Below are positions 1-11,393 of a DNA stretch of 11,393 nt, one piece after another. The stretch is from a virus. Position 1 is the stretch's first letter. Each line of letters starts with the position of its first letter. The position numbers were made by a program, and so were the translations under genes. Below the pieces are notes generated by a model. The model did not search any database. It had not been told where the DNA came from and worked only from the letters and a program-made list of their open reading frames with translations. The DNA is taken from the IMG/VR virus record IMGVR_UViG_3300050133_000071, positions 1 through 11,393 of that record; one strand, given 5' to 3'.

Positions 1-2083
1 TATCACGTGAGTATTTACGGTATGCCGCCTGAAGTTTACCGGTAGACATAGCCATGATCTCATTCTTTGTCAGCAGTCGATCTCCAGATGACCTCCAGTA
101 TCCGTGTGCATCAATTTGCCATTGTGCGCGGGTATATTCATCCTTGGTTTTCATGACAGGGTGATCTGCATATGCCTTGCTTGTATCTGTGGGCAGTTTT
201 CGGAAAAGGAGAATGTATTCAGGGCACCCGATGCCCATCTTTGAACCATCTTTGCATTGCTCAGACCATCCGAGGCGATAAGTTTGATTATTTTCCCTTA
301 CGACGTCCGTTACAACCGTAATCATGCCAAAGTACTGAAACCCGTGCTTAATAAAATGCTCAATAACATAGACATGAAAAGGCTCTATGGTCGGCATTCC
401 GGTACCTGTGGCGTTACCAAACAAGACACGATCTTTTACGTGGATGGCGGCGACGCGCCCGGGCATAAGGCTGTGGTACAGGTTCGGGGTTAGATAATCC
501 ATCTGTTCGAAAAATCGGCCAGTGTTTGCGTTATGCCCGAAATCGTTATAGCTGGCCGAATATTCATAATGGTTGCCGAATGGGATCGATGTATGTATTA
601 AACCAAAGGTGTTTTCGGGTAACTGCTCGCATTCTAAGATGCAATCGTTATTTATGGCCGTGAAATGCTCTCCTTTGATTACCACTCGTTTCACCCCTAT
701 ACTGCGGGCCATTTTATCCATCACATTTACGCCTGCCAGTCCATATTTTTTTATAATCTCCGTCATTTTCTTTGCAAGGTAATTATGCTGTTCCCACTTT
801 TCGAGTAGTGCCTTAAGGATCTCGGCCTCTCCTTCGGTGTAGATAATGTCGATGATAACCTGATCGGTTTGCAGAAAGCGGTATATCCTATGGATGGCCT
901 GAATGAAATCATTGAACTTATAATCTATCCCGACAAATATAGCCCTATGGCAATGGCGCTGAAAATTGCAGCCGCTCCCTGATATTTTCTTTTTGGTGGC
1001 AAGCAGCCGTGTTTTGCCTTCTGAAAAGTCAATGGTTCTTTGCTCTTTGATATTGATATCTTCTGAGCCAAATATTTCAACAGCGTCCGGCAGTGCCTTC
1101 TTGATTGCATGCCGCTCGGCTTCAAGATCATGCCAGAGAATAAAATGCGCGTCAGGGTCCGAATTGACAATTTCAACTGTTTTTTTGACGCGGGCAGCGA
1201 GGCTCTCGTTTTTCTCGTGGGAAGCATCCGAAAGTGATACCGAGGCTTCGCGCATGATCTTCATCTGGCCGTCGCGGTCTTCCACCGGTGCGCCGCTCAT
1301 CGTTATTTTGTGGTACCTGACTTCAAGTGGCGGCAGGTCATAGCCGGTGTCGTCATATCCGAGGTCGCTTGGCTTCGTAATAAAGAGCGCCCAGCTGCTC
1401 AACCATGCCCAGAACTTATTTTCCTGCGATTTATAAAGCGTGAGGTTGTTCGCTTTGGTGCTGTCACGCTGAAAGAAGCGCGTGAGAGCCTGTCCGGTAT
1501 CCATCACCTCAAGGAAGCCTGCATAATGGATAAGTTCTTTGTATCGGTTTGGTGAAGGTGTGGCCGTCGAAACAAATTTATATTTCACGCCTTTGAATTT
1601 TATCAAGAATGTCTGATAGGTGTCTGACCCGTAACTCCGTAACACTGAAGCTTCGTCAAGATGGCAAACCATGAAATATTTAGGATCAATATCCCCATCC
1701 CTGACCCGCTCATAGTTGGTCATCATAATGTCATCTGTGCACGCTCTTACCTCAGCCATTGTACGGACGTATTGAGGCGGCAACATATGAAGGAGTTCAA
1801 CAGCGTCGCGGGTGAATTCCTGTTTCACCCCGAGCGGCAGAACTATAAGAGCTTTGCCGCCTTTATGCTTAATTACAATGCGGCTGATTTCAAGTTCCTG
1901 TGCTGTTTTCCCAAGCCCGAAAGCTTCAAAAATTGCGCGGCGCCCGCCACTTATTGCCCATTTGACGGCATCGCGCTGATGTGGCTTTAATACAGAATTG
2001 ATTTCGGAGGTCTCAATTTCAAAGCCTGTTTCAGGCGCGATATCAATTTTTGATTTAAGAAAATCTATGTAATTATTCGTCAC
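1..2083 (-). CDS. SNF2/DEAD-like helicase fused to a beta-class N6-adenine/N4-cytosine DNA methyltransferase domain (C-terminal end lies beyond position 1)
   Basis: Hand translation of the minus strand gives an uninterrupted frame from GTG at 2083 to the window edge. GGAGG at 2094-2098 lies 10 nt upstream of the GTG. The ORF is missing from the track because it is edge-truncated. Helicase motifs seen: FGLGKT (Walker A), HLDEAS (motif II) and QAIHRIYR (motif VI-like). The C-terminal half carries IHTSIPF, a (D/S)PP(Y/F)-type methyltransferase motif IV. Motif I is not yet reached, as expected for beta-class domain order. All plus-strand ORFs at 257-1990 are short and antisense to this frame. Confidence 0.85.
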   Translation of the reverse strand, partial: MTNNYIDFLKSKIDIAPETGFEIETSEINSVLKPHQRDAVKWAISGGRRAIFEAFGLGKTAQELEISRIVIKHKGGKALIVLPLGVKQEFTRDAVELLHMLPPQYVRTMAEVRACTDDIMMTNYERVRDGDIDPKYFMVCHLDEASVLRSYGSDTYQTFLIKFKGVKYKFVSTATPSPNRYKELIHYAGFLEVMDTGQALTRFFQRDSTKANNLTLYKSQENKFWAWLSSWALFITKPSDLGYDDTGYDLPPLEVRYHKITMSGAPVEDRDGQMKIMREASVSLSDASHEKNESLAARVKKTVEIVNSDPDAHFILWHDLEAERHAIKKALPDAVEIFGSEDINIKEQRTIDFSEGKTRLLATKKKISGSGCNFQRHCHRAIFVGIDYKFNDFIQAIHRIYRFLQTDQVIIDIIYTEGEAEILKALLEKWEQHNYLAKKMTEIIKKYGLAGVNVMDKMARSIGVKRVVIKGEHFTAINNDCILECEQLPENTFGLIHTSIPFGNHYEYSASYNDFGHNANTGRFFEQMDYLTPNLYHSLMPGRVAAIHVKDRVLFGNATGTGMPTIEPFHVYVIEHFIKHGFQYFGMITVVTDVVRENNQTYRLGWSEQCKDGSKMGIGCPEYILLFRKLPTDTSKAYADHPVMKTKDEYTRAQWQIDAHGYWRSSGDRLLTKNEIMAMSTGKLQAAYRKYSRD

Positions 2084-2282
2084 CGATATAAACCTCCTCT
2101 ATCAGGGTTACGTTATCAAAATAGATGATGTAGATGGTTTTGGATGAATTCGCGACTTTGAGCGTATTTCCGATCCGCTCACCATTTTCGCATATGCCTG
2201 ATATTGCACCGTAAAGATTTGACCTAGCTCTATATTTCCTGCCATAGAAAAGAACTGTATCTAATTTTGTCCCCAATTTCAA
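2073..2282 (-). CDS. hypothetical small protein (69 aa, TTG start)
   Basis: The ORF-track frame has a TTG start that overlaps the TGA of the upstream ASCH gene (TTGA). Its 3' end overlaps the helicase GTG by 11 nt, which is operon-style packing. It has no recognisable motif and no internal ATG. Confidence 0.35.
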   Translation of the reverse strand: MKLGTKLDTVLFYGRKYRARSNLYGAISGICENGERIGNTLKVANSSKTIYIIYFDNVTLIEEVYIGDE

Positions 2283-2794
2283 CCGGGCACTGCGCGGTGA
2301 ATGCTGCTGCTTGCATATTCAAAATTCCCTTCCGGTCTCCACGTCCAAAGACCCTGCGCGCCGCGGGCGGGCACCGGTTGGGTAAATGGCTGTGGATGCG
2401 TTGTGATCCAGGCGAACCGCCCCGGGCTATAATCCCCGAAGGCCAGCTCATCACCGGTAACCTCCCTCCCATTTGCGAGGAGCGCCGACATGTGCTTTGC
2501 TCCATTGATGGGGTTTGAGACTTCCCTGAGTTTGAGAATCTTTACGCAGTTTGTAACTTCGATGGTGCCGAGCACCGTACCGAGGGTCAGGGGCCGCGTT
2601 GCCAGTGCCCGTTGAAAAGCTGGCGTCTGCATAAGGGTCATAGCGTCGTCATCAAGCTTTTTCGCCGAATGAATAGCAATCAGGCCGCGGAAGTTTGTTG
2701 CCCATCCGCGCGTTTCTATTCCTTTTGCGCCGATGATCAGCAGCGTGGCCCACGGCTGCCAGTCGGTCAGGACCTTTATCTCATCTATGTGCAT
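2279..2794 (-). CDS. ASCH domain protein (PUA-like fold)
   Basis: The N-terminus WQPWATLLIIGAKGIETRGWATNFRGLIAIHS matches the classic ASCH signature (QPWA..I..G.K..E.R.W....RG...IH). The C-terminal GDYSPGRFAW...ARGAQGLWTW is also typical of this family. The start is ATG at 2794. Confidence 0.8.
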   Translation of the reverse strand: MHIDEIKVLTDWQPWATLLIIGAKGIETRGWATNFRGLIAIHSAKKLDDDAMTLMQTPAFQRALATRPLTLGTVLGTIEVTNCVKILKLREVSNPINGAKHMSALLANGREVTGDELAFGDYSPGRFAWITTHPQPFTQPVPARGAQGLWTWRPEGNFEYASSSIHRAVPG

Positions 2795-2803
2795 TTGCTC
2801 ACC

Positions 2804-3349
2804 TCAATCTAAAAACTTAAGCATGCCGCTCTCAAAATCGAGCCTGCAAGTGTCAAGGTCTTTGGCGGTCACATATTTGCGGCCGAACTGCTCTTTCATC
2901 GAAGTCCAAACTTTCCATGGTACCCGGAAGAAATCACAAAATCCGAAGGAAACCATGACAAAGCACTTGGCTCCGAGCCGAAAATGCAGGTTGAGGGCGT
3001 CGGTCTGCTCCGGCGTCACACGGTTTTGTGCCATTTTTTCGGTGTCAGTGTGTTTTGCCTCAAAGCAGACCGCATGGCCGCCGCTCAGTGTGCCCTTGAA
3101 ATCCGGCTGGGCCTTTTTCTCAAAGTTTGCGATGAACCTGCCCTCACCGAGATCCTTTATCGGTCGCATGGGCTCCGGTGTTTTCTCTATGTAGGCACGC
3201 CCTTCATTTTTATAAACCTCGCAGGCTCCGATAATAAGATTTTCAAAGGTTCTCCCACTGTTTCGATTTACCGCTCCTTGCAACTGACGTCTGGGATGCG
3301 TGCAATCTGCGATCATTGCCCTGAAATCAGCTGAGGTCATGTCACCCAT
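2804..3349 (-). CDS. recU: RecU-like Holliday junction resolvase (PD-(D/E)xK nuclease)
   Basis: GRTFENLI...YIEKTPEP...PDFKGTL..GHAVCFEAKHT...CFVMVSF mirrors the RecU layout (G..fE..I, K.P.P, D(F/Y).G...FEAK.T). AAGGAGGA lies 6 nt upstream of ATG 3349. Confidence 0.8.
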   Translation of the reverse strand: MGDMTSADFRAMIADCTHPRRQLQGAVNRNSGRTFENLIIGACEVYKNEGRAYIEKTPEPMRPIKDLGEGRFIANFEKKAQPDFKGTLSGGHAVCFEAKHTDTEKMAQNRVTPEQTDALNLHFRLGAKCFVMVSFGFCDFFRVPWKVWTSMKEQFGRKYVTAKDLDTCRLDFESGMLKFLD

Positions 3350-3363
3350 GGGCGTGTCCTCCT

Positions 3364-4125
3364 TTATCCTGTGTCGTTATCGTCTTCATCCGGCAGCCGA
3401 CCGCCTCCTTCCGCAAGGTCAACCGCGCCTTCTCTTATGCATTTCAGATATTTTGACGTGCCGGTTCTCTCTGAGCTGTAAACCTGATAGTCAAGCATCC
3501 TGTATCCTTTGGGTGTTGGTATTATTCTTTTGGGATCGATGCGCTTGATCTTCTTGTATTTCACGATTGGCTTTTTTAAGTTTCGGCTTGATGACCAGCG
3601 CCGCTTATGCTCCTCAGGTTTCTCCTTAGTGATATAGTGTGCAAGTCCGGTGTAATCGCCTCCGTCAAGATTGCTGCTGAGAACTCTCCCAAGTTTCCAA
3701 AGCTTTGTTGCAGCATCCCTGCTCATGCCGCTCATAATGAGGTGATGGTGTTCGCGCCCCTTTTCCCCTGTTTCCGTCACTGCAATCCATTTTATTTCTG
3801 GGAGAGCATTTTTCCGACGGTAATCGCGTAATCGCCTGAAATAGTTTTTAAGTTCCTTCTCAGGTTCTCCTTTTTTCGGGCGGCAGGCATATGTCAGGGT
3901 TATAAATAAGTCCTCCTCTGCAAAATTGCCATTAATTAGCCTGCTGAGTTTTTTCCGAGCATTTTGTTCGTTAAATTCCTGCTGCTGTTCTGGTGTTAAA
4001 CCTTGATTGCCTTTTCTCCTTGTATATGTTTCGCCCGGTTGGCGGAAGGAGACTATTTCTTCTATCTCACAAACCGGACCCGAATAAATATATTTACGGT
4101 AATTCATATTGCCATTTACCCCCAC
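3364..4125 (-). CDS. HUH-superfamily rolling-circle replication initiator (Rep)
   Basis: Three ordered RCR motifs are present: LFITLTY (motif 1, FLTLT-like), REHHHLIM (motif 2, HUH) and GLAHYITKE (motif 3, catalytic Y-x-x-K). The track start is GTG 4125. ATG 4107 (MNYRKY...) is an alternative start. Confidence 0.75.
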   Translation of the reverse strand: MGVNGNMNYRKYIYSGPVCEIEEIVSFRQPGETYTRRKGNQGLTPEQQQEFNEQNARKKLSRLINGNFAEEDLFITLTYACRPKKGEPEKELKNYFRRLRDYRRKNALPEIKWIAVTETGEKGREHHHLIMSGMSRDAATKLWKLGRVLSSNLDGGDYTGLAHYITKEKPEEHKRRWSSSRNLKKPIVKYKKIKRIDPKRIIPTPKGYRMLDYQVYSSERTGTSKYLKCIREGAVDLAEGGGRLPDEDDNDTG

Positions 4126-4181
4126 GTCCTTAAAATAATGATATTATCGAGGATTTAAAGAGCCTTCCTTAGCCCTTTTAA

Positions 4182-4210
4182 TTGACAACATATTGGGGTT
4201 ATGTTATACT
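4182..4210 (+). promoter_or_regulatory. sigma70-type promoter, TTGACA-17 nt-TATACT, pointing rightward against the operon
   Basis: TTGACA sits at 4182-4187 and TATACT at 4205-4210, separated by an exact 17-nt spacer. The site lies in the 179-nt gap between the 211-aa gene and rep. Confidence 0.6.
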
Positions 4211-4240
4211 GTTTTCAAGGTGTTCACTACAATATGTTGT
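4185..4240. repeat. 11-bp perfect inverted repeat bracketing the promoter -10 region
   Basis: ACAACATATTG (4185-4195) and CAATATGTTGT (4230-4240) are exact reverse complements, 34 nt apart. Confidence 0.7.
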
Positions 4241-4284
4241 ATGGTGCTTAGTGGCTCGATGTACAGTCGAGCCACTATTTTTTT
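4217..4284 (+). ncRNA. candidate approximately 68-nt antisense (counter-transcribed) small RNA in the rep leader
   Basis: It is bounded by the promoter above (predicted TSS about 4217) and the intrinsic terminator at 4251-4284. There is no credible ORF or RBS inside. It is antisense to any minus-strand transcript entering rep. Confidence 0.5.
4251..4284 (+). terminator. rho-independent terminator, plus strand only
   Basis: A 9-bp perfect stem pairs GTGGCTCGA (4251-4259) with TCGAGCCAC (4267-4275), with a 7-nt loop. TATTTTTTT follows at 4276-4284. On the minus strand no U-tract follows the hairpin. Confidence 0.65.
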
Positions 4285-4304
4285 GTGGCTTTTTATTTCA
4301 TATC

Positions 4305-4940
4305 TCATGTGGTATCATCATCCTCTTCAGGTTGCTCTTCTGTGAAGCCGATTTGAGGATACTCTTCGATGTCTCCTGCGGCTTTCCTTGTTGAAAATGC
4401 AAAACGACATTGTTTTGTTAATTCTTCCATTTGAACAACAAAATCCTTGTTTATGATTTCATAAGGCATGATAACAGCCATTATCATAAAACCGGTCTTT
4501 GCAACTATGTATATCTTTCCATTGGTTGTAAGCCGCTCGTATAATTCCAAGGTGTCAGCAGTGTCAGAAAGAGGGCTTAGATACTTGGCATCAATAAAGA
4601 CAAGGCCACGCTGAGTTTTTAGCGGAATAAGTACCCGCCCCGCTGCGACAATATTGAGCTTTTCGCTTTCAAGCCTGTTTTCGCAGGGCACAGCATCCTC
4701 AAAGGAGAATTGAGTCGGTAAATCTTCATGTTTATAAGTATATTTGTCATGAATTTTTTCAGGGATATCGAAGATAGCAAATATGCTTTCCTCCTCAAGG
4801 TTCGGTAACTCAAACGCTGGATACATGACAGCACCGTCACCGATCCAATGCACATCAATTCCTCCGTCGCTCAACTTTTTGTCGTAAATGAAAATGCGCT
4901 TACTTTTTGCGCAGATTGAAGCTATAGACTTAATTTTCAT
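4305..4940 (-). CDS. hypothetical protein (211 aa) with an acidic C-terminal tail
   Basis: GGAGGAG lies 9 nt upstream of ATG 4940. The ORF is long and compositionally normal, and it ends EEQPEEDDDTT. I recognise no family. Confidence 0.75.
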   Translation of the reverse strand: MKIKSIASICAKSKRIFIYDKKLSDGGIDVHWIGDGAVMYPAFELPNLEEESIFAIFDIPEKIHDKYTYKHEDLPTQFSFEDAVPCENRLESEKLNIVAAGRVLIPLKTQRGLVFIDAKYLSPLSDTADTLELYERLTTNGKIYIVAKTGFMIMAVIMPYEIINKDFVVQMEELTKQCRFAFSTRKAAGDIEEYPQIGFTEEQPEEDDDTT

Positions 4941-5166
4941 GCTTAATTGCTCCTCCGTCTTTCCTATTCCTTGTTTCCTCTGCTATGACTCGTTCATACG
5001 CCGGAGCGCTATATTTCGACAGTTGGCCACTCAGGCATTCTTCAGTTTGCTTGATAATCTCCTTGACTGCTTCAGGGCATCGCTCAATGTTTATATTGCT
5101 GCCGGTGCTCGCGACAATCCCGTGGTGATCCATCATTATGGTTATTGTGGCTATTCCCCATATCAT
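4930..5166 (-). CDS. hypothetical small protein (78 aa)
   Basis: GAGGGA lies 6 nt upstream of ATG 5166. The stop overlaps the next gene's start by 11 nt. Confidence 0.6.
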   Translation of the reverse strand: MIWGIATITIMMDHHGIVASTGSNINIERCPEAVKEIIKQTEECLSGQLSKYSAPAYERVIAEETRNRKDGGAIKHEN

Positions 5167-5232
5167 TGCGTGTCCCTCATTTCGTCTGTTTCTACCCCCT
5201 TTTATTTAAAGGCTTTGCAGCCACTATATTGA

Positions 5233-5580
5233 TTAAAAGAGTGATGTTTGTCTCGGCTTATTCTCATCTGGTATGATTTCAATTTCTTTATCTCGAGATC
5301 GATCACGTTTTTTATATTGTTTCACTTCCATCTGCTCAGCAATCTCAGTGAGGATGCAGCTGCCATAGCCAAGCCGAATTTCATACCCTTCGTTTAAATA
5401 ATCCGATTCCGCACCCACATCACGCTTGAGGCGCTGTAAGCGGCAACAAAATTCCGTGTAATCGATGCTGAGCCATCCGTCCCCGCCTTCGTTAAACCGA
5501 ATGCTCACTCGTGGAAAGCCGCTTTTTAATGTCGGTGGGTTTAGGCCGTATATCTTCCAATAAGGCTGCTCGCAAACCAT
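5233..5580 (-). CDS. hypothetical protein (115 aa from the internal ATG)
   Basis: The track ORF runs 5233-5610. AAGGGAGGG lies 6 nt upstream of ATG 5580 (MVCEQPYW...), whereas the longer start has no RBS. I recognise no family. Confidence 0.75.
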   Translation of the reverse strand: MVCEQPYWKIYGLNPPTLKSGFPRVSIRFNEGGDGWLSIDYTEFCCRLQRLKRDVGAESDYLNEGYEIRLGYGSCILTEIAEQMEVKQYKKRDRSRDKEIEIIPDENKPRQTSLF

Positions 5581-5610
5581 GATCAACCCTCCCTTTGCAG
5601 TTGACTGCAA

Positions 5611-5787
5611 AACGTATTTCCGTGAGTTTCGCTCGGCCCCGAATAATTCTCAGCGGGAGTGGTAGGACTTTCAACGGAGGCCGATATAGCCTGTCCATAT
5701 CTATTTGCCACTCACTCTCTACTGGCGATTGGATATAAGTGTCCGACTTCTATCCTTTCTCGGAGCCGAGCGCAGCCCGCGGCTGCG
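5611..5787 (-). other. structured non-coding leader, copy A of a duplicated bipartite element
   Basis: Read on the minus strand, the 5' block CGCAGCCGCGGGCTGCGCTCGGCTCC (5787-5762) matches copy B at 23 of 26 positions. The 3' block GGGGCCGAGCGAAACTCACGGAAATA (5640-5615) matches copy B at 22 of 26. About 120 nt of hairpin-rich insert separates the two blocks. Confidence 0.45.
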
Positions 5788-5856
5788 TAACTGTTACATT
5801 GGTCCCACCCATCCTTTCACGGTAAGTCAAGCCCAAGGTTGCTATCTCATTTTCAC

Positions 5857-5885
5857 TTGTAATATTTAGCCTTATGGTGTAATAT
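5857..5885 (+). promoter_or_regulatory. candidate promoter TTGTAA-17 nt-TAATAT for the plus-strand zinc-ribbon gene
   Basis: TTGTAA is at 5857-5862 and TAATAT at 5880-5885, with a 17-nt spacer, 22 nt upstream of the ATG. It overlaps a tandem TATGGTGT-AA-TATGGTGT at 5873-5890. Confidence 0.5.
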
Positions 5886-5907
5886 GGTGTCGGAAGGAGG
5901 CGATTGT

Positions 5908-6303
5908 ATGCCAACAACTGGAGAGAAGCCGGGCAAGGGTTATTACAAATGCATAAAATGCTGGACAGTTATTCTTCTTGATAATGATGTTGATACTTTG
6001 CCACCATGCCCGCATTGTGAAAACATAGATTTCTTAAATAGCGGAAAGCTATTTCCGTGGACAAACAATAATATTGAAGATGCAATACAAATTATCGATT
6101 TAGATAAGAAATTAAATCCTTCCGAAAAGGAAGATTTTAAGTCTGTAATCCCCGATCTGATTTCAGAAACTCCTAAGACCAATGCTGCATTACAAAAAGC
6201 AAAAAAGTATATGAAAAAGTTCGGAACTTCTGCTGCCTTGTCGTTTAGACAATTTATAATTGACTGGTCCTGCGAATTTGTAAAAAAATCACTACAGGGG
6301 TAA
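5908..6303 (+). CDS. zinc-ribbon (CxxC...CxxC) protein, 131 aa, opposite-strand insert
   Basis: GGAAGGAGG lies 7 nt upstream of ATG 5908. The N-terminus YKCIKC...17 aa...CPHC is a four-cysteine ribbon, and the rest is lysine-rich and helical-looking. The gene is visibly AT-richer than its flanks. Confidence 0.8.
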   Translation: MPTTGEKPGKGYYKCIKCWTVILLDNDVDTLPPCPHCENIDFLNSGKLFPWTNNNIEDAIQIIDLDKKLNPSEKEDFKSVIPDLISETPKTNAALQKAKKYMKKFGTSAALSFRQFIIDWSCEFVKKSLQG

Positions 6304-6317
6304 ACTTATGCTTGGTA

Positions 6318-6554
6318 TCATCCCCACGCGTTGTGGCGTTTAAGAACGTCAATTAACTCGGGCGCGTATTCTTCATCAATATTTACAACTATGTATTCAG
6401 ATTTTGAATTGCGCCCTTGTAATACACGCATATTGCCAATCCAATGGTTGGCCTCGTTAATCGCATTCTGAAGTTTCAGAGGTAGCAGTTCAATATCAGA
6501 TAGTTTAAAAACAAGATGGGTAAGGCGCCCGCCGCATTTCATAGATTTATTCAT
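6318..6554 (-). CDS. hypothetical small protein (78 aa from the internal ATG)
   Basis: GGGGGAGGAGGA lies 5 nt upstream of ATG 6554 (MNKSMKCGG...). The 37-aa N-terminal extension in the track (to 6665) has no RBS and runs through structured element B. Confidence 0.75.
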   Translation of the reverse strand: MNKSMKCGGRLTHLVFKLSDIELLPLKLQNAINEANHWIGNMRVLQGRNSKSEYIVVNIDEEYAPELIDVLKRHNAWG

Positions 6555-6574
6555 ATTATGTCCTCCTCCCCCTG

Positions 6575-6673
6575 TTCTTTTTCCGTGGGTTCCGCGCGGC
6601 CCCAAAATCACAGTTGCAACTGCCAAACAGCCATGATTTTTATTTAGGAGCTGCGCGCAGCCCACGGCTGCGC
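6575..6673 (-). other. structured non-coding leader, copy B of the duplicated bipartite element
   Basis: On the minus strand, an 8-bp hairpin GCGCAGCC-GTG-GGCTGCGC (6673-6655) is followed by GCAGCTCC. Downstream lies GGGGCCGCGCGGAACCCACGGAAAAAG (6603-6577). About 43 nt separates the 5' block from the 3' block, including the palindrome CAGTTGCAACTG (6611-6622). Confidence 0.45.
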
Positions 6674-6748
6674 TATGTATTTATTCTGATATTGCGCGGC
6701 CTTTTCGTGCAATATGGGCATATGTAACCTTTGCGCGGGATCCTGGCC

Positions 6749-6919
6749 TTAATGCTTATGTTCCAGCCTTTTCGGCAAACTGAGCATCTTGCGTTCAAGC
6801 TTAATCAGCCCCTTCCGGAGCGAACGGATCTGCAACAAGCATCTGAATATCAGAGCAGCGCAGCCTATCCAAATTGAGATAAACATTAGATAGATAATCA
6901 GATCGTATATGGTGTGCAT
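6749..6919 (-). CDS. small membrane protein (56 aa; one TM helix plus a basic tail)
   Basis: It is below the track size cut-off. AGGAGA lies 7 nt upstream of ATG 6919 and overlaps the TAG stop of the upstream gene. Translation: MHTIYDLIIYLMFISIWIGCAALIFRCLLQIRSLRKGLIKLERKMLSLPKRLEHKH. Confidence 0.6.
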   Translation of the reverse strand: MHTIYDLIIYLMFISIWIGCAALIFRCLLQIRSLRKGLIKLERKMLSLPKRLEHKH

Positions 6920-6930
6920 AAGTGATTCTC

Positions 6931-8190
6931 CTATTCTTCCGGGTCGTATTCTTCTTTCACGTCTTCGGCGTCAATCAAACTATCCATGTCGTCAAATGCG
7001 CACTGGCGGTTTTCGAGAAGTGCATCCGTGCTGTCAAACACATCTAAAATAGTGGGAATTCCCTTGCTTCGCGTTTTATAGAGTTTTCTCAATTCTTCTG
7101 CCATGCCGTAGTCCATGAGCGCTTTCCACTGCGAATGGTGCGTATGGCGTAACATTTGCTGATGATTGTTTTTATATAAGATGTCTGTTGCACAACCCAT
7201 GCAGCCATTGCGTTGCATTTTGTGTTCTATTCCTTTATTGTCCGTGTAAGCCACGTTGTATACTTCCGAATATGGCACATCAAAAGTGTGTATGTACTCC
7301 CAAATATCATCATCCGTCCAAATCTGTAATGGATTGCAATGGTAAAAAGGGTCTTCTCCGAGATGCGGCCTATGAGATTTAAATAAATATCCTCGCGTTG
7401 CAAAATTGATTTTCCTCGTCCGGCTTTCTGATGCCATTAAGCCTTTGAATATCACATCGACATCAAGTTCCACCTGCAATTTTTCGGAAGGTTCCTTTTT
7501 AATGAGCTTGCAACAGTGCTGCGAAAATTTGCACTCTCTCAAGATGTCATAATATTTCAGGAGCTCTTCTTTATTGCTTGCGCTTTCAGAAAATTTTAAA
7601 AAACAGTCAATATTGATTCTCCTTGCGTCAAGCTTTGAGGCCGCCTTGCCTAAAATCGGGAAACCGTACTGATCTGCGCACCACCAATAAGACATTATTG
7701 TCCCAGCAGGCCAAACAAGATTCCGTTTTTTAAAGTCCTCCCACATCTCATGAGTTGCCTTTTGTTCAAAAGAGTGGGTATTTTTAAGCTTGCCATCATC
7801 TTTTAGCACCTCTGAAAGCCTGCCCTCTTTAATGAGCCATTCCAGCACTTCACGCTGAGCCTGATATTTTAAACCATTTTCTTCGGTGCGGCTAAGTTGT
7901 GTTTCGTAAAAGTGTTCACCGCCCCATTTTTTCCCGAGTTGACGGGCAAATTTTAAACTTTCAGGGTATTCAACGCCAGTATTTCCAAAGATGATTTCAG
8001 GCGTTCTTTCGGGAAAATATGTACGAATTAAATGCCACAAAACGGTGCTGTCTTTACCACCGCTAAACGCAATGGCTGTATTATGCGTTGATACTGCAAA
8101 TCCGGCGGCTATTGCTTCAATGGCTTTGTCTATCTTGTAGTCAAGTGGCTTTTTGATTTCGGCCGCAATGTCGGTAAATGATATGTACGT
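6931..8190 (-). CDS. PP-loop ATP-pyrophosphatase / PAPS-reductase-like protein (DndC/IbrA-like family); 5' end uncertain
   Basis: The track starts at TTG 8040, but the same frame is open upstream to 8205 and encodes AIAFSGGKDSTVLW, the SGGKDS PP-loop. The family-typical CCKLIKKEP and C-terminal GCMGC cysteine motifs are also present. There is no ATG, GTG or TTG between 8040 and 8205. ACG 8190-8188 sits 6 nt after GGAGGG. The stop is TAG 6933-6931. Confidence 0.8.
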   Translation of the reverse strand, partial: TYISFTDIAAEIKKPLDYKIDKAIEAIAAGFAVSTHNTAIAFSGGKDSTVLWHLIRTYFPERTPEIIFGNTGVEYPESLKFARQLGKKWGGEHFYETQLSRTEENGLKYQAQREVLEWLIKEGRLSEVLKDDGKLKNTHSFEQKATHEMWEDFKKRNLVWPAGTIMSYWWCADQYGFPILGKAASKLDARRINIDCFLKFSESASNKEELLKYYDILRECKFSQHCCKLIKKEPSEKLQVELDVDVIFKGLMASESRTRKINFATRGYLFKSHRPHLGEDPFYHCNPLQIWTDDDIWEYIHTFDVPYSEVYNVAYTDNKGIEHKMQRNGCMGCATDILYKNNHQQMLRHTHHSQWKALMDYGMAEELRKLYKTRSKGIPTILDVFDSTDALLENRQCAFDDMDSLIDAEDVKEEYDPEE

Positions 8191-8192
8191 GT

Positions 8193-8564
8193 TTATCCCT
8201 CCAATTCACCAAGCGCAGCCGCGATCTCGGCCTCACGCTTTATGTAGCCGTTTAATGCGTCAGGCCTGTGCAGCCCCATCACTTCAACCACTCTCCGGCT
8301 GACCTGAACCTTATTTAGTTGCTCTTTTAATTCCCGAATTGTTACTCGAACCGATCGTCCCGAAATGTAACGGCTATTATCAGAGGTTAAGTGCGGGTAA
8401 TCTGTAGGGTCGTCAGGTTCAAATTTATCGGGGCACTCCGGAAAATCGTCCTTGTCGGGCTCTTCGGGCTACGCGGTGAATGTGGCCGTTAAACGCCGCT
8501 CTATGCCATTGAAAAAAGTCTCGCCGGTATTGCCCTGATGGTAAATTTCGCAAGCTGACATCAC
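8193..8564 (-). pseudogene. coding-looking frame (about 123 codons) interrupted by one in-frame TAG; unknown function
   Basis: AAGGAGGA lies 8 nt upstream of GTG 8564 and 11 nt upstream of ATG 8561. Thirty sense codons follow, then TAG at 8471-8469, then 91 more stop-free codons to TAA 8195-8193. The segment after the TAG has no start codon near its beginning. No ORF appears in the track anywhere in 8041-8632. Confidence 0.6.
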
Positions 8565-8632
8565 TTTTTTATTCCTCCTTTACATAAATTTCTAACCTCT
8601 GCTTGCCGAACTGTACCGCCGCGGCGTGGGTG

Positions 8633-8932
8633 TTATTTGCTCGCGTGCAATCTCGCATGTTCTTTCCTCGACATAATCATAAGATTTTCCGGTCGATTGT
8701 CGCGCTTATCGCCGTTGATAACGCTACAATACTTAGAGGTTAACTTCTTTTTAGCGAAACTTTTCCCACAAGTCGGGCAAATGGAATACTGAGTTTCCGT
8801 TCTACTCTTATGCATCCCAACACATTGCCGTGAGCAAAACCTCTGTTCATGGTCAGCACGAGCCGTGAAAGGCTTTCCACATTCCTCACAGACAAAGGTT
8901 TTCATTTTTCTGGATTTTGCGAAATTATCCAT
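8633..8932 (-). CDS. HNH-family endonuclease remnant (two zinc ribbons plus a truncated HNH core)
   Basis: CEECGKPF...FCSRQC and CPTCGKSF...YCS are two zinc ribbons. The C-terminus INGDKRDNRPENLMIMSRKEHARLH is the distal part of an HNH motif, but the usual preceding VHH catalytic histidine and linker are absent. AGGAG lies 8 nt upstream of ATG 8932. Confidence 0.7.
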   Translation of the reverse strand: MDNFAKSRKMKTFVCEECGKPFTARADHEQRFCSRQCVGMHKSRTETQYSICPTCGKSFAKKKLTSKYCSVINGDKRDNRPENLMIMSRKEHARLHASK

Positions 8933-9366
8933 ACCTTTAGCTCCTGTTTTCCGAAATTTAACGCCGATTGATGGTCGTTCATAAAAATATCAATATGTTT
9001 GCCTTTGATTTTGCCACCGATATCCTGCACTACTCGGGTGCCTTCAACCCCGTCTATTTGCACCTCTGTCCCTTCCGGCAGCACCGACCAGTCGGCCGCG
9101 ATCGTTATACCCTCAACCGCTTTAACTCCGCTTTTGGTTATGCCGTCCGTTTTTCCGCAATCCTCATATGTAGCGGAGTATGCCGTGACCGTAAATGTGC
9201 CTAAATCTATCAATGCGGTTTGCACCCCGCTGCGCTGATCTGCTGAGCATTGGACGATTATTGTGTAAACCTGCGCTGGCTTGTCCGCTTTTGCCGGAAG
9301 CGGACCGATTATAAGTAGAAATACTGTAATTGCCGTAAGTACCGCGACTCTCTTTATATGTCGCAT
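8902..9366 (-). CDS. secreted 3D-domain protein (RlpA/MltA-like double-psi beta-barrel, peptidoglycan-acting)
   Basis: The N-terminus looks like a signal peptide (VAVLTAITVFLLIIGPLPAKA). It is followed by TAYSATYEDCGKTDGITKSG...IAAD...LPEGT...VQDIGGKIKGKHIDIF, the 3D-domain pattern. GGAGGGG lies 5 nt upstream of ATG 9366. Confidence 0.8.
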   Translation of the reverse strand: MRHIKRVAVLTAITVFLLIIGPLPAKADKPAQVYTIIVQCSADQRSGVQTALIDLGTFTVTAYSATYEDCGKTDGITKSGVKAVEGITIAADWSVLPEGTEVQIDGVEGTRVVQDIGGKIKGKHIDIFMNDHQSALNFGKQELKVWIISQNPEK

Positions 9367-9384
9367 TACATCCCCTCCGATATT

Positions 9385-9639
9385 TCAGCTTTTATTTTGC
9401 ATTGCTGCCGTTCCCCCGTTGCGCTGCCACTTATCAAGTTCGTCCTGGATAAAATAGATGCGATTGCCAACAAGATAATATAATCCTTCGAGCTTGCCTT
9501 GCTTATGTAGCCGCCGAAGCGTCCGCTCCGAGCAGGGTATGGCCGCGGCGGCCTCTTTGAAATCAAGTGGGGTGATCAAGCGGTTCACTTCCTTTCTACT
9601 CGTCGCACATGGTTGTTTTTTCTTGTCTTTTTCGCCCAT
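9385..9639 (-). CDS. excisionase-family HTH DNA-binding protein (HTH_17-like)
   Basis: LITPLDFKEAAAAIPCSERTLRRLHKQGKLEGLYYLVGNRIYFIQDELDKWQ is the Xis/MerR-like winged-helix pattern. ATG 9639 has no RBS and sits inside a 9-bp inverted repeat. TTG 9579, preceded by GAAAGGAAGTGA, is an alternative start giving 64 aa. Confidence 0.7.
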   Translation of the reverse strand: MGEKDKKKQPCATSRKEVNRLITPLDFKEAAAAIPCSERTLRRLHKQGKLEGLYYLVGNRIYFIQDELDKWQRNGGTAAMQNKS

Positions 9640-9662
9640 AAAATGTAATATTGTGGGCGAAA
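9630..9662. repeat. 9-bp perfect inverted repeat spanning the annotated xis-like ATG
   Basis: TTTCGCCCA (9630-9638) and TGGGCGAAA (9654-9662) are exact reverse complements with a 15-nt spacer. Confidence 0.6.
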
Positions 9663-9835
9663 GAGATAACGCCGAGCCAAGCCCTTAGGGGAAGGTGTAA
9701 CGACTGGACACGGAGCAACCGTTCGCGGCGGTTGAAGGCACAGTCTGAACTTTGCGGTGACGTAAAGAGCTTGACGGAAACGATTAGGCCACGCAGAAAT
9801 GCGGAGTAACAAATTGGATTAATGGAATTAGTAAT

Positions 9836-9982
9836 ATGAGTGATATGAGTAAAACAATAGGCAAAGGTCTTTATTCTTCATTTGAGGGGTTAGACAAAAT
9901 TTCTGAAACATTTGGCAACGCATTCAAAGGCATTACATCCATAAAAATAAATCCAGAGGTGAATGGTCGCCCTGCCGCGTAG
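9836..9982 (+). CDS. possible small protein (48 aa), weakly supported
   Basis: ATG 9836 to TAG 9982 translates to MSDMSKTIGKGLYSSFEGLDKISETFGNAFKGITSIKINPEVNGRPAA, which is protein-like and amphipathic. It lies in an AT-rich tract on the same strand as the next gene. There is no convincing RBS. Confidence 0.25.
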   Translation: MSDMSKTIGKGLYSSFEGLDKISETFGNAFKGITSIKINPEVNGRPAA

Positions 9983-10054
9983 TAATATGTGGTCTGCACT
10001 CCGTAAATTCGGCGAAAGTCTCTTTCTAATATTGTGGCGAAAGGAGGAATACGT

Positions 10055-10315
10055 ATGATTTATTCAATAAGTTACGATCTCAAAAAGCCCGGCAGAAGTT
10101 ACGAAGAAGTATATGGCGCAATTAAATTGATTGGTGCATGGGCGCATTGCCTTGAATCCACATGGGTGGTTGAATCTGATTTAAGTGCAGAGCAGATTTA
10201 TAAAATTGTTCATGCCAAAATGGACGAAAACGATTATCTACTTGTTTCTAAAATTGGAGAATCGCATTGGCTGTTGGAAAAGGAAGTTTCGGATTGGCTT
10301 AGCAATCACCTTTAG
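10055..10315 (+). CDS. small protein (86 aa) with predicted beta-alpha-beta-beta-alpha-beta (ferredoxin/Cas2-like) pattern; function unknown
   Basis: AAAGGAGGA lies 6 nt upstream of ATG 10055 (MIYSISYDL...). The pattern is a hydrophobic strand plus YDL, a helix, then STWVVES, a helix, then DYLLVSKI. The fold assignment is by eye only. The stop is TAG. Confidence 0.75.
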   Translation: MIYSISYDLKKPGRSYEEVYGAIKLIGAWAHCLESTWVVESDLSAEQIYKIVHAKMDENDYLLVSKIGESHWLLEKEVSDWLSNHL

Positions 10316-10460
10316 ACCCACATTCAACATTCAACCCGGTGCCAACAGTTACAACTCCATCGGTGCAACCTGTTGGTACAAATTTTTCTTTCGGCTGCGC
10401 TGTTTCTTCCAGCGTGGCCACTCTTTTTTCAAGGTCTTCGATGCGTTTATTGTTAAACAT
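10299..10460 (-). CDS. hypothetical small protein (53 aa; N-terminal coiled-coil-like, Cys/Gly-rich tail)
   Basis: It is below the track cut-off. AAGGAGGTG lies 7 nt upstream of ATG 10460. Translation: MFNNKRIEDLEKRVATLEETAQPKEKFVPTGCTDGVVTVGTGLNVECGSKGDC. Its 3' end overlaps the convergent plus-strand gene by 17 nt. Confidence 0.6.
   Translation of the reverse strand: MFNNKRIEDLEKRVATLEETAQPKEKFVPTGCTDGVVTVGTGLNVECGSKGDC
10338..10390 (+). terminator. candidate intrinsic terminator for the plus-strand cassette
   Basis: The stem pairs GGTGCCAACAG (10338-10348) with CTGTTGGTAC (10370-10379), with core CCAACAG/CTGTTGG. The loop is large, about 21 nt. AAATTTTTCTTT follows. The whole structure lies inside the convergent 53-aa gene. 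Confidence 0.35.
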
Positions 10461-10498
10461 TCTTTTTCACCTCCTTCTTATTCCGTCCCAATGTATGG

Positions 10499-10708
10499 TC
10501 AGGCCGTGTCGCGGGTATCGGGTTTTAAATCCTGAGCTACCATATAGGCTTCAAATCTTGCCCGAACGATAATGTAGCGCCATGAATTTTTAAGCCAGAT
10601 TGCGTGGCCGAACGGGCAATTAGGGTCTTTTGTCCACTCTCTAATCGTGGGAATATCAAGACCCATAATTTTCGCGACCTCTTCGGCCTTGATTAATATT
10701 TCCGACAC
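10499..10708 (-). CDS. HTH DNA-binding protein (excisionase/AlpA-like)
   Basis: The start is GTG 10708, with AAGGAGG 10 nt upstream. LIKAEEVAKIMGLDIPTIREWTKDPNCPF...W is an HTH_17-like pattern. Confidence 0.7.
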   Translation of the reverse strand: MSEILIKAEEVAKIMGLDIPTIREWTKDPNCPFGHAIWLKNSWRYIIVRARFEAYMVAQDLKPDTRDTA

Positions 10709-10747
10709 CGACTGCTCGCCTCCTTTCTTGTTTCGTGCTATGTATGG

Positions 10748-10996
10748 TTAGACGCTGGTGGGGGATGCGGGCGTTCGTGGTGTGGAGTAGATGAAACCAG
10801 AATCTATCGCGAAAAGATAACTAATTTCAAGATTTGAGAACAAAGTATTCCGTATCTTCAACACATCAAACCATGAAATCTTTGTTGCGCCATTGAGATA
10901 GTTTCTCGCGGTCTTTTCGCTAACTCCTAAACAATCGCATATATCCTTGACCGCTAATCCATGGCGCGCCATTTCAGCCGCAAGATTTTTGAACAT
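10748..10996 (-). CDS. Cro-like XRE-family HTH regulator, first gene of the leftward early operon
   Basis: VKDICDCLGVSEKTARNYLNGATKISWFDVLKI is an XRE-type HTH. The gene is divergent from the CI-like gene across an operator-bearing region. Confidence 0.8.
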   Translation of the reverse strand: MFKNLAAEMARHGLAVKDICDCLGVSEKTARNYLNGATKISWFDVLKIRNTLFSNLEISYLFAIDSGFIYSTPRTPASPTSV

Positions 10997-11014
10997 ATAT
11001 TCACCGCCTTTCTC

Positions 11015-11103
11015 TAACCGTATTCGGTTACCATATCCATATAATAATACCGTATTCGGTTAATGTCAAGGACTTTTAAAAGATATTTTACCGAATGCGG
11101 TTA
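11015..11103. promoter_or_regulatory. three operator copies (AACCG-N4-CGGTT palindrome family)
   Basis: The three copies are TAACCGTATTCGGTTA (11015-11030, perfect dyad), TACCGTATTCGGTTA (11048-11062) and TACCGAATGCGGTTA (11089-11103). Confidence 0.75.
11041..11069 (-). promoter_or_regulatory. leftward early promoter, TTGACA-17 nt-TATTAT
   Basis: On the minus strand, TTGACA is at 11069-11064 and TATTAT at 11046-11041. The middle operator fills the 17-nt spacer. Confidence 0.6.
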
Positions 11104-11121
11104 TTTATTCCTAATATTTTA

Positions 11122-11150
11122 TTGACAATCGGAAACAAAGGATTTATAGT
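11122..11150 (+). promoter_or_regulatory. rightward promoter, TTGACA-17 nt-TATAGT, for the CI-like gene
   Basis: TTGACA is at 11122-11127 and TATAGT at 11145-11150, with a 17-nt spacer, 22 nt upstream of ATG 11173. Confidence 0.65.
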
Positions 11151-11172
11151 ATATTTATGGATGGTGATATTA

Positions 11173-11393
11173 ATGGGATTAGATTTAATAAACATTTTAA
11201 AAAAGCAAAAAGGGCTTACAAGCGAAGAACTTGCAAAGCTTTCAGGTGTGCCCATCGGAACACTTAATAAGATACTAAACGGACAGTCAAAAAATCCTCA
11301 ATTAGAAACTTTAGCTGCCCTTGCTCGAGTGTTGGAATGTTCAATAGATGATTTTGATACTTCATTTAACAACAACTTCGCCATAGACCCTGC
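11173..11393 (+). CDS. CI-like XRE-family HTH repressor (3' end beyond the window)
   Basis: Hand translation: MGLDLINILKKQKGLTSEELAKLSGVPIGTLNKILNGQSKNPQLETLAALARVLECSIDDF..., a canonical HTH_3 domain. The frame is open to the window edge. GGTGA lies 5 nt upstream of the ATG. Confidence 0.85.
   Translation, partial: MGLDLINILKKQKGLTSEELAKLSGVPIGTLNKILNGQSKNPQLETLAALARVLECSIDDFDTSFNNNFAIDP

Follow-up and report, generated by a model that had tools for sequence, protein, structure and literature searches.

What is the role of a non-coding sequence that occurs twice in the early region of a phage, each time immediately upstream of a small orphan gene? The question is raised by the viral record IMGVR_UViG_3300050133_000071 of IMG/VR; its positions 1 to 11,393, the whole stretch of DNA that was analysed, are called the window below. 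The window is the early region of a temperate phage, which is of the siphovirus type and belongs to a poorly studied group from gut-type Firmicutes; the host is probably a member of the Oscillospirales. An earlier note, made from the nucleotide sequence, had described a duplicated, structure-forming element (copies A and B) in front of two genes of the minus strand that code for 115 and 78 amino acids (aa). As set out in the following, this is a real, lineage-restricted, two-copy inverted-repeat leader element that fits no described family. Tentatively, it is interpreted as an RNA duplex in the 5' leader that acts in cis, in the manner of an RNase III site or a 5' stabiliser, and would control processing or stability of the message.

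Each copy contains two conserved blocks. Block 1 (CGCAGCCGYGGGCTGCGCKCRGCTCC) is located on the minus strand at 5787-5762 in copy A and at 6672-6647 in copy B and is identical in 23 of 26 positions. Block 2 (GGGGCCGMGCGRAACYCACGGAAA) occupies positions 5640-5617 and 6603-6580 of the same strand; when 5617-5643 is aligned with 6580-6606, 23 of 27 positions are identical. The blocks thus measure 26 and 24-27 nucleotides (nt), the arms of copies A and B are approximately 88% identical, and the longest exact run between them comprises 9 nt. Order and orientation of the blocks are the same in copy A (5617-5787) and copy B (6580-6672). A repeat finder applied to the window picked up both blocks independently as direct repeats (families D5 and D6), which together with the alignment bears out the claim that two blocks recur in order upstream of both genes. 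A pattern search allowing up to three mismatches located only copies A and B in the window, compared with an expectation of 0.00-0.01 from 200 shuffles. Chance is excluded as the origin of the repeat.

Block 2 is the reverse complement of block 1, and the plus strand at 6583-6603 fits the block-1 pattern. The element is therefore an imperfect inverted repeat around a variable insert. Among all inverted repeats of the window, copy B ranks first (I1, 26-nt arms, 81% complementarity) and copy A third (I3, 23-nt arms, 78% complementarity). In each copy, an imperfect stem of about 21 positions closes the insert, which has a length of 121 nt in copy A and of 43 nt in copy B; the two inserts cannot be aligned and are unrelated to each other. 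With five additional bases at its 5' end, the left block can form a local hairpin of seven perfect base pairs, part of which coincides with the left arm. The 7-bp half-sites of the corresponding palindrome CGCAGCC-N3-GGCTGCG are perfect and identical in both copies, and only the central base differs. Arms and local hairpin are kept between the copies and the filling is not; to judge from this pair of sequences, the stem is what is retained. The two copies are built up as follows.

5762-5787, minus strand: 5' block of copy A, with hairpin CGCAGCC-GCG-GGCTGCG (5787-5771) overlapping the left arm (5782-5762)
5641-5761, minus strand: insert of copy A, 121 nt, with two inner hairpins (5731-5755 and about 5674-5698)
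5617-5640, minus strand: 3' block of copy A, GGGGCCGAGCGAAACTCACGGAAA; the right arm (5640-5620) pairs with 5782-5762 at 18/21 positions
5611-5594, minus strand: 7-bp hairpin TTTGCAG-TCAA-CTGCAAA, specific to copy A, followed by the Shine-Dalgarno (SD) sequence GGGAGGG (5593-5587)
6647-6672, minus strand: 5' block of copy B, with hairpin (G)CGCAGCC-GTG-GGCTGCG(C) (6673-6655) overlapping the left arm (6667-6647)
6604-6646, minus strand: insert of copy B, 43 nt, which lengthens the stem by about 10 more bp
6580-6603, minus strand: 3' block of copy B, GGGGCCGCGCGGAACCCACGGAAA; the right arm (6603-6583) pairs with 6667-6647 at 18/21 positions

Both copies are situated between minus-strand genes, and no credible open reading frame (ORF) runs across them. 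Strong SD sequences precede the start codons of the two downstream genes, ATG 5580 and ATG 6554; downstream of copy B, the SD is GGGGGAGGAGG. In the predicted fold of copy B and in the centroid of copy A, the ribosome-binding sites (RBSs) are unpaired. These findings support the proposal that a duplicated element, which is non-coding and forms structure, directly precedes two small genes.

On the minus strand, the predicted folds have energies of -78.5 kcal/mol for copy A (z-score -3.3) and of -44.0 kcal/mol for copy B (z-score -2.4), and copy B is the third most structured 120-nt minus-strand segment of the whole stretch. The corresponding values for the plus strand are -76.0 kcal/mol (z-score -4.0) and -41.9 kcal/mol (z-score -3.4). 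Pairing of the arms on the minus strand extends over 18 of 21 positions in either copy, with mismatches at the same two internal positions. The fold of copy A contains both 7-bp hairpins that had been recognized previously, namely the one at 5787-5771 and the one adjoining the RBS at 5594-5611. The same applies to the insert hairpin at 5731-5755; the second insert hairpin, which had been placed at 5683-5701, is predicted at about 5674-5698 instead. The 11-bp helix formed by CGCUCGGCUCC and GGGGCCGAGCG with one G-U pair had been described correctly for copy A. The earlier note had also found no resemblance to a known riboswitch or ribozyme. In agreement with this, cmscan searches of Rfam with the window and with each of the two regions, which considered E-values up to 10, gave nothing relevant to the element: the hits were noise of the microRNA or long non-coding RNA type and scored at most 16 bits.

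Repeated, sequence-related RNase III sites are found in the early region of phage T7. According to a passage of PMC4838370 that refers to Panganiban and Whiteley (1983), such sites are also present in the early RNA of phage SP82. In B. subtilis, mapped RNase III substrates are duplexes of 10-36 bp with no more than two unpaired bases between pairs, and their strands can be more than 100 nt and up to 505 nt apart (PMC11780869). The predicted folds of both copies lie within these limits: 18 of 21 positions are paired, the mismatches are single and isolated, and the arms are separated by 121 nt in copy A and by 43 nt in copy B.

These similarities suggest a mechanism in which the two conserved arms would pair once the polycistronic early RNA has been made. 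The resulting duplex of approximately 21 positions, with a conserved small internal loop, would close a variable apical domain and come to lie 13-30 nt upstream of a strong, unpaired SD. Host RNase III, or alternatively a dsRNA-binding factor of phage or host, might recognise the stem. Cleavage or binding would then uncouple the downstream orphan gene from upstream RNA; in the case of copy A, the RNA that is uncoupled would be antisense to the DUF2321 gene located between the copies. The structured 5' end left behind could shield the message from 5'-exonuclease and set the level of translation. For this mechanism, minus-strand RNA would have to be the active form, transcription would have to pass across both copies, a nuclease or protein would have to act on the stem, and the stem would have to affect downstream expression. 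The location of the element is consistent with these assumptions. It is on the strand of the early operon, with a cro-like gene and three repeats that are likely to be operators located upstream, and a second long hairpin (9623-9669) is found at another gene start of the same operon. No promoter-like site was detected in or beside copy B, and none ahead of either left arm, which fits read-through transcription from upstream.

Several observations weigh against a leader RNA. On the plus strand, 18/21 positions of the arms pair in copy A and 19/21 in copy B, as converted from the minus-strand pair types, and G.U and C.A mismatches are equally common in the arms. Pairing that is equally good on both strands singles out neither of them and would be expected if transitions had accumulated in a decaying DNA inverted repeat. 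The predicted dominant folds differ as well. In copy A, six of the seven pairs of the local hairpin have probabilities of 0.68-0.74, and the two competing folds are about 1 kcal/mol apart; in copy B, the extended helix is ahead by 4.6 kcal/mol and the probability of the local hairpin is close to zero. Copy A thus favours the local hairpin and copy B the extended helix. The operon strand has no U-tract after copy A or copy B. Since the folds are inconsistent, a U-tract is missing and the RBSs are free, the switch or attenuator suggested in the earlier note is not supported, be it terminator-based or RBS-masking; in neither copy is a terminator or a sequestered RBS predicted to alternate with another fold, as in the expression platform of a riboswitch or attenuator.

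The pattern of substitutions points in the same direction. Four paired positions differ between the copies: one change is compensatory (U-A to G-C), one converts G.U to G-C, and two are pair-breaking, with C.A in copy A and A.C in copy B. The double change from U-A to G-C, on which selection on structure had been based, does exist; however, the same helix of copy B has the A.C mismatch, and one pair is lost per pair compensated. Among 500 shuffles, 265 were at least as good, and no significant covariation was seen between the two sequences, with one compensatory versus two pair-breaking changes. As only two sequences are at hand, the compensatory change carries no weight, and support for selection on RNA structure is nil at present. 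In addition, transcription of copy A might start inside the insert, where a sigma-70-like site is present on the minus strand (TTGAAA at 5674-5669, a 17-nt spacer, and GAGAAT at 5651-5646); the transcript would then be devoid of the left arm. This site is the only such match on the minus strand, and the region contains four matches in total compared with 3.6 expected from shuffles.

A further point against a leader RNA is the outcome of the homology searches, which yielded no homologue of the element in IMG/VR, GenBank phages, plasmids or 84 related loci, so that conservation of the structure cannot be assessed. Scans of IMG/VR with four DNA patterns gave only chance matches in high-GC phages, and no GenBank phage or plasmid matched the element in blastn. 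When metagenomes and genomes were scanned with a degenerate pattern covering all four arms, the matches listed, at least 120 in either scan, were single-arm chance matches, none of them paired; among those listed, they came from high-GC organisms. The 84 related phage loci, which comprise 657 kb, had been gathered by means of a neighbouring 211-aa protein. None of them contains an arm at four or fewer mismatches. A covariance model of the arms (R1) recovered copy B with 76 bits and missed copy A; the long insert of the latter limits the sensitivity of the model. Applied to the related loci, R1 gave only noise, including a 16-bit match in locus L018 that overlaps coding sequence. DNA homology to all 84 loci ends precisely with the start codon (4940) of the 211-aa gene. 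Hence the segment 4941-11393, which includes copies A and B, is unique to this phage, and breakpoints cannot be assigned to the arms. The earlier note had stated that a lack of further homologues would refute its proposal. As far as the searches reach, there are none; given that the databases contain no close relative of this phage and that two large scans each listed at least 120 matches, this absence is weak negative evidence.

Exact-protein look-ups identified five contigs from four samples, which are 99.7-100% identical, have the same orientation and show no variant inside the element. A third copy was not found in a further 7.4 kb of the same phage (contigs L266 and L268), which leaves two copies in 18.8 kb. 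Two Logan contigs from two samples (L011 and L013) share an end at window position 6734, a short distance downstream of the 56-aa gene, and a third one (L014) stops at 6655, within the hairpin of copy B. These contig ends could reflect population variants or a drop in coverage at the GC-rich hairpin.

In which genetic neighbourhood do the two copies reside? The early operon of the minus strand runs from a cro-like gene through the replication genes. The cro-like helix-turn-helix (HTH) gene (10748-10996) faces a divergent cI-like HTH gene, which is contained in the longer contig L268. Three copies of the near-palindromic sequence ACCGTATTCGGTTA are located between the two genes at 11017-11103 and are likely to be the operators of the lysis-lysogeny switch. 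On the minus strand, the cro-like gene is followed by HTH genes, a 3D-domain gene, an HNH gene, a PAPS-reductase-like gene and a 56-aa gene. Copy B, the 78-aa gene, the reverse-oriented DUF2321 gene, copy A and the 115-aa gene come next, and then a further 78-aa gene, the 211-aa gene, and the genes for an HUH Rep, RecU and an ASCH-domain protein. The genes that adjoin the two copies are the following.

5233-5580, minus strand: 115-aa orphan gene downstream of copy A, ATG at 5580
5908-6303, plus strand: DUF2321 gene, reverse-oriented, GC content 0.35
6318-6554, minus strand: 78-aa gene downstream of copy B, weak match to phrog_5992

Among 5.8 billion proteins, the 115-aa protein matched only itself, and no relative of the 78-aa protein was found beyond the weak phrog_5992 match. 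The two products are unrelated to each other, and paralogy of the genes was therefore rejected. The Joint Genome Institute (JGI) calls a 115-aa protein from GTG 6665 that reads through copy B. This coding reading is probably an over-extension, because a strong SD precedes ATG 6554 and the phrog_5992 family is 75 aa long. The two copies had been assigned to a single operon; they do share its strand, but the plus-strand DUF2321 gene interrupts it between them, so that the intergenic region with copy A is flanked by divergent genes. A segment consisting of the 78-aa gene and the DUF2321 gene is thus bracketed by the direct repeats B and A. The GC content of 5851-6450, which comprises the DUF2321 gene and part of the 78-aa gene, is 0.35-0.39 compared with 0.45-0.5 in the neighbouring regions, and the segment looks like a horizontally acquired moron. 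A close relative of the DUF2321 protein was not found in IMG/VR, and no defence or anti-defence annotation was found for the neighbouring genes.

Some further features of the operon were noted. The hairpin at 9623-9669 has a near-perfect 19-bp stem (z-score -6.2) and spans the start codon (9639) of an HTH_17 gene. Its plus-strand half holds the motif TAATATTGTGG..GAAAG(G)AG, which recurs at 5880-5899 and 10027-10046, upstream of the plus-strand DUF2321 and 93-aa genes, and looks like a common -10 box plus RBS. A group I intron match at 9281-9767 on the plus strand (23.9 bits versus a gathering score of 50, E-value 0.012, unaligned insert of about 290 nt) overlaps minus-strand coding genes and is probably spurious. 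For the PAPS-reductase-like gene, an ORF beginning with TTG 8040 is listed; upstream of this codon the reading frame stays open and includes the PP-loop motif SGGKDS (window 8041-8632), which places the real start near 8170. The stretch of about 450 nt between this gene and the HNH gene has many stop codons and no called gene.

A different non-coding region lies directly upstream of rep, at 4126-4304. It contains two perfect 11-bp inverted repeats (4249-4277 and 4185-4240), and its fold has a z-score of -3.9. Compared with positions 2180-2375 of L021, the closest syntenic relative, its identity amounts to 84%, whereas that of the adjacent 211-aa protein is only 58%. This region is a conserved non-coding element and probably represents the promoter/operator of rep or the replication origin. 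Neither copy A nor copy B occurs in L021, in L018 or in any of the 82 other loci found via the 211-aa gene; the location of rep next to this gene was confirmed in L019-L021 only, and not in L018. Hairpins of rolling-circle origins, which carry the nick site of Rep, normally adjoin rep or lie within it and are conserved together with it, whereas copies A and B are 1.5-2.5 kb away from rep. Consequently, the idea that the element serves Rep in the manner of a single-strand origin (sso) is weakened, with 4126-4304 being the better candidate.

Instead of a leader RNA, the element might, as the main alternative, be a recombination or cassette-boundary DNA sequence similar to the promoter-early stem-loops (PeSLs) of T4-type phages; conserved intergenic inverted repeats would border orphan-gene cassettes and supply short homology for their modular shuffling. 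We consider this possible but rather unlikely, and the same applies to the corollary that the direct copies are the footprint of the acquisition of the 78-aa/DUF2321 segment, with RNA structure being incidental or that of a secondary attenuator. The direct repeats do bracket exactly one foreign-looking segment (GC content 0.35 versus about 0.45-0.5, DUF2321 reversed), the downstream genes are both orphans and mutually unrelated, the region is hyperplastic, with no DNA homology to the 84 relatives upstream of 4940, and pairing is strand-symmetric, as for a DNA repeat. PeSLs, too, are repeated stem-loops that prefer the vicinity of ORFans and undergo recombination among themselves (PMC2839356). 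However, the 18.8 kb of phage contain no more than two copies and the relatives contain none, copy B lacks a sigma-70 promoter and that of copy A is not above chance, and the operon strand has no U-tract terminator. Moreover, homologous recombination would find a poor substrate in 26 nt that are 88% identical and have no exact run longer than 9 nt, a simple duplication would have copied the insert as well, yet the inserts are unrelated, and breakpoints of the mosaic could not be assigned to the arms. Under the leader-RNA interpretation, too, recombination probably gave rise to the two copies, or spread them, at the time when the phage acquired the low-GC 78-aa/DUF2321 cassette; RNA and cassette boundary are therefore not mutually exclusive interpretations. 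An unlikely alternative is a DNA-binding site, where the 17-bp palindrome CGCAGCC-N3-GGCTGCG would bind a dimeric regulator as operator or roadblock, or form a hairpin or cruciform for the HUH Rep in the manner of an sso or double-strand origin (dso). The perfect half-sites, identical in both copies apart from the central base, would suit such a role, as would the several small HTH proteins and the HUH Rep encoded in the same operon and a structure that is equally good on either strand. But the right arm by itself is no palindrome, and the imperfect arms contrast with the near-perfect candidate operators at 11017-11103 and 4185-4277; the palindromes have no associated promoter; the region just upstream of rep, 84% conserved in the closest syntenic relative, is a far better candidate; and it would be unusual for a phage to have a pair of origins that are separated by 0.9 kb and located 1.5-2.5 kb away from rep.

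It is somewhat less probable still that the element acts on the plus strand as a terminator or attenuator against antisense transcription, in which the long helix would be an antiterminator that competes with a GC-rich hairpin plus T-rich tail. Copy B would then end the DUF2321 mRNA and copy A an antisense RNA over the 115-aa gene, so that the operon is insulated or convergent genes are coupled; this extension is equally improbable. The hairpin 6655-6673 followed by TATGTATTTA is indeed the only terminator-like site found downstream of DUF2321 on this strand, the order of the segments (arm, arm overlapping hairpin, hairpin, T-rich tail) suits an attenuator on the plus strand only, and the plus-strand z-scores (-4.0 and -3.4) are slightly better. 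Yet the tail of copy A (TAACTGTTACATT) is no T-run by the criterion applied, no plus-strand gene or convincing promoter feeds copy A, the predicted plus-strand fold of copy B is the extended helix, which blocks the terminator hairpin, and the site is 350 nt past the DUF2321 stop codon. Very unlikely, too, is a role of the arms as a structure-specific recognition site, in the form of folded ssDNA or RNA, for a phage-encoded factor, which would either mobilise small gene cassettes in a manner similar to attC or PeSLs or toggle a bistable leader between local hairpin and extended helix and thereby time the expression of orphan early genes. In both cases this would be a class of cassette-boundary or regulatory elements of phages that has not been described before; being conserved in the arms only, it would be missed by sequence searches. 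Least probable is mobile or invertible DNA, that is, a miniature inverted-repeat transposable element (MITE) inserted twice, or an inverton with a recombinase-flipped promoter segment. Inverted arms of 21-26 bp around a variable interior, the position of copy A between divergent genes and a promoter-like site of the insert that points at the 115-aa gene are reminiscent of such elements. On the other hand, no target-site duplication flanks either copy, the block runs 5 nt past the inverted repeat on one side only, and the 43-nt interior of copy B is too short for a promoter or an inversion. The 18.8 kb examined code for no transposase, invertase or recombinase; the orientation is the same in all five independent contigs, which have no variant inside the element; and neither IMG/VR nor 657 kb of related phages yielded another copy.

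If the element is a processing or stability signal, it is one more case of phages punctuating their early polycistronic RNA with reusable stem-loops, and it offers a handle on how newly gained orphan genes plug into an existing operon. If it is a recombination boundary, PeSL-like modular shuffling extends beyond T4-type phages. The finding is real but fairly ordinary; at present the value of this lineage-restricted, two-copy element without comparative support is mainly that of a candidate for RNA-end mapping.

How does the element compare with known systems? The antitermination RNAs putL and putR of phage HK022 are a precedent for a cis-acting structured RNA that occurs twice in one phage, with differences that largely preserve pairing. 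Each put site consists of two adjacent stem-loops and is located directly downstream of an early promoter and upstream of terminators. The element resembles putL and putR in having two sequence-similar copies in one phage; unlike them, both of its copies belong to the interior of one operon, each would fold into one long stem around a variable insert, and no terminator comes after them. With integron attC sites it shares imperfect inverted repeats with conserved ends and a centre of variable length, as well as the position at gene-cassette boundaries. In contrast to attC, it has no RYYYAAC/GTTRRRY core sites, is not accompanied by an integron integrase and sits 5' of the genes, by the RBS.

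The PeSL cassettes of T4-type phages (PMC2839356, PMC4122927) are similar in that a GC-rich stem-loop is repeated in a variable region direct copies flank orphan genes, and a role in modular shuffling is plausible. PeSLs contain a sigma-70-type promoter within the repeated motif, whereas at least copy B of the element is devoid of a consensus early promoter, the promoter-like site of copy A lies in the non-conserved insert, and a terminator U-tract is lacking. PeSLs are present in dozens of copies in a T4-like myovirus. Here, two direct copies flank an ORFan and a moron in a region without DNA homology to relatives, within the 18.8 kb seen of a siphovirus-type temperate phage of Firmicutes.

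The RNase III sites of phages differ from the element in sequence, and the element has only two copies and a conserved local 5' hairpin that competes with part of the stem; cleavage here is conjectural. What both have in common are sequence-related, imperfect long stems in the leaders of early operons, as in R0.3-R1.3 of T7 and in the early sites of SP82, which are also 5' stabilisers. Common to both are, furthermore, an internal loop, a variable apical part and a position just upstream of a gene with a free RBS. The size of the predicted duplex is within the range of 10-36 bp known from B. subtilis, where long-range closure is allowed (PMC11780869). Of the systems known, the one that the element would most resemble in its working is the stem-loop punctuation of phage early operons.

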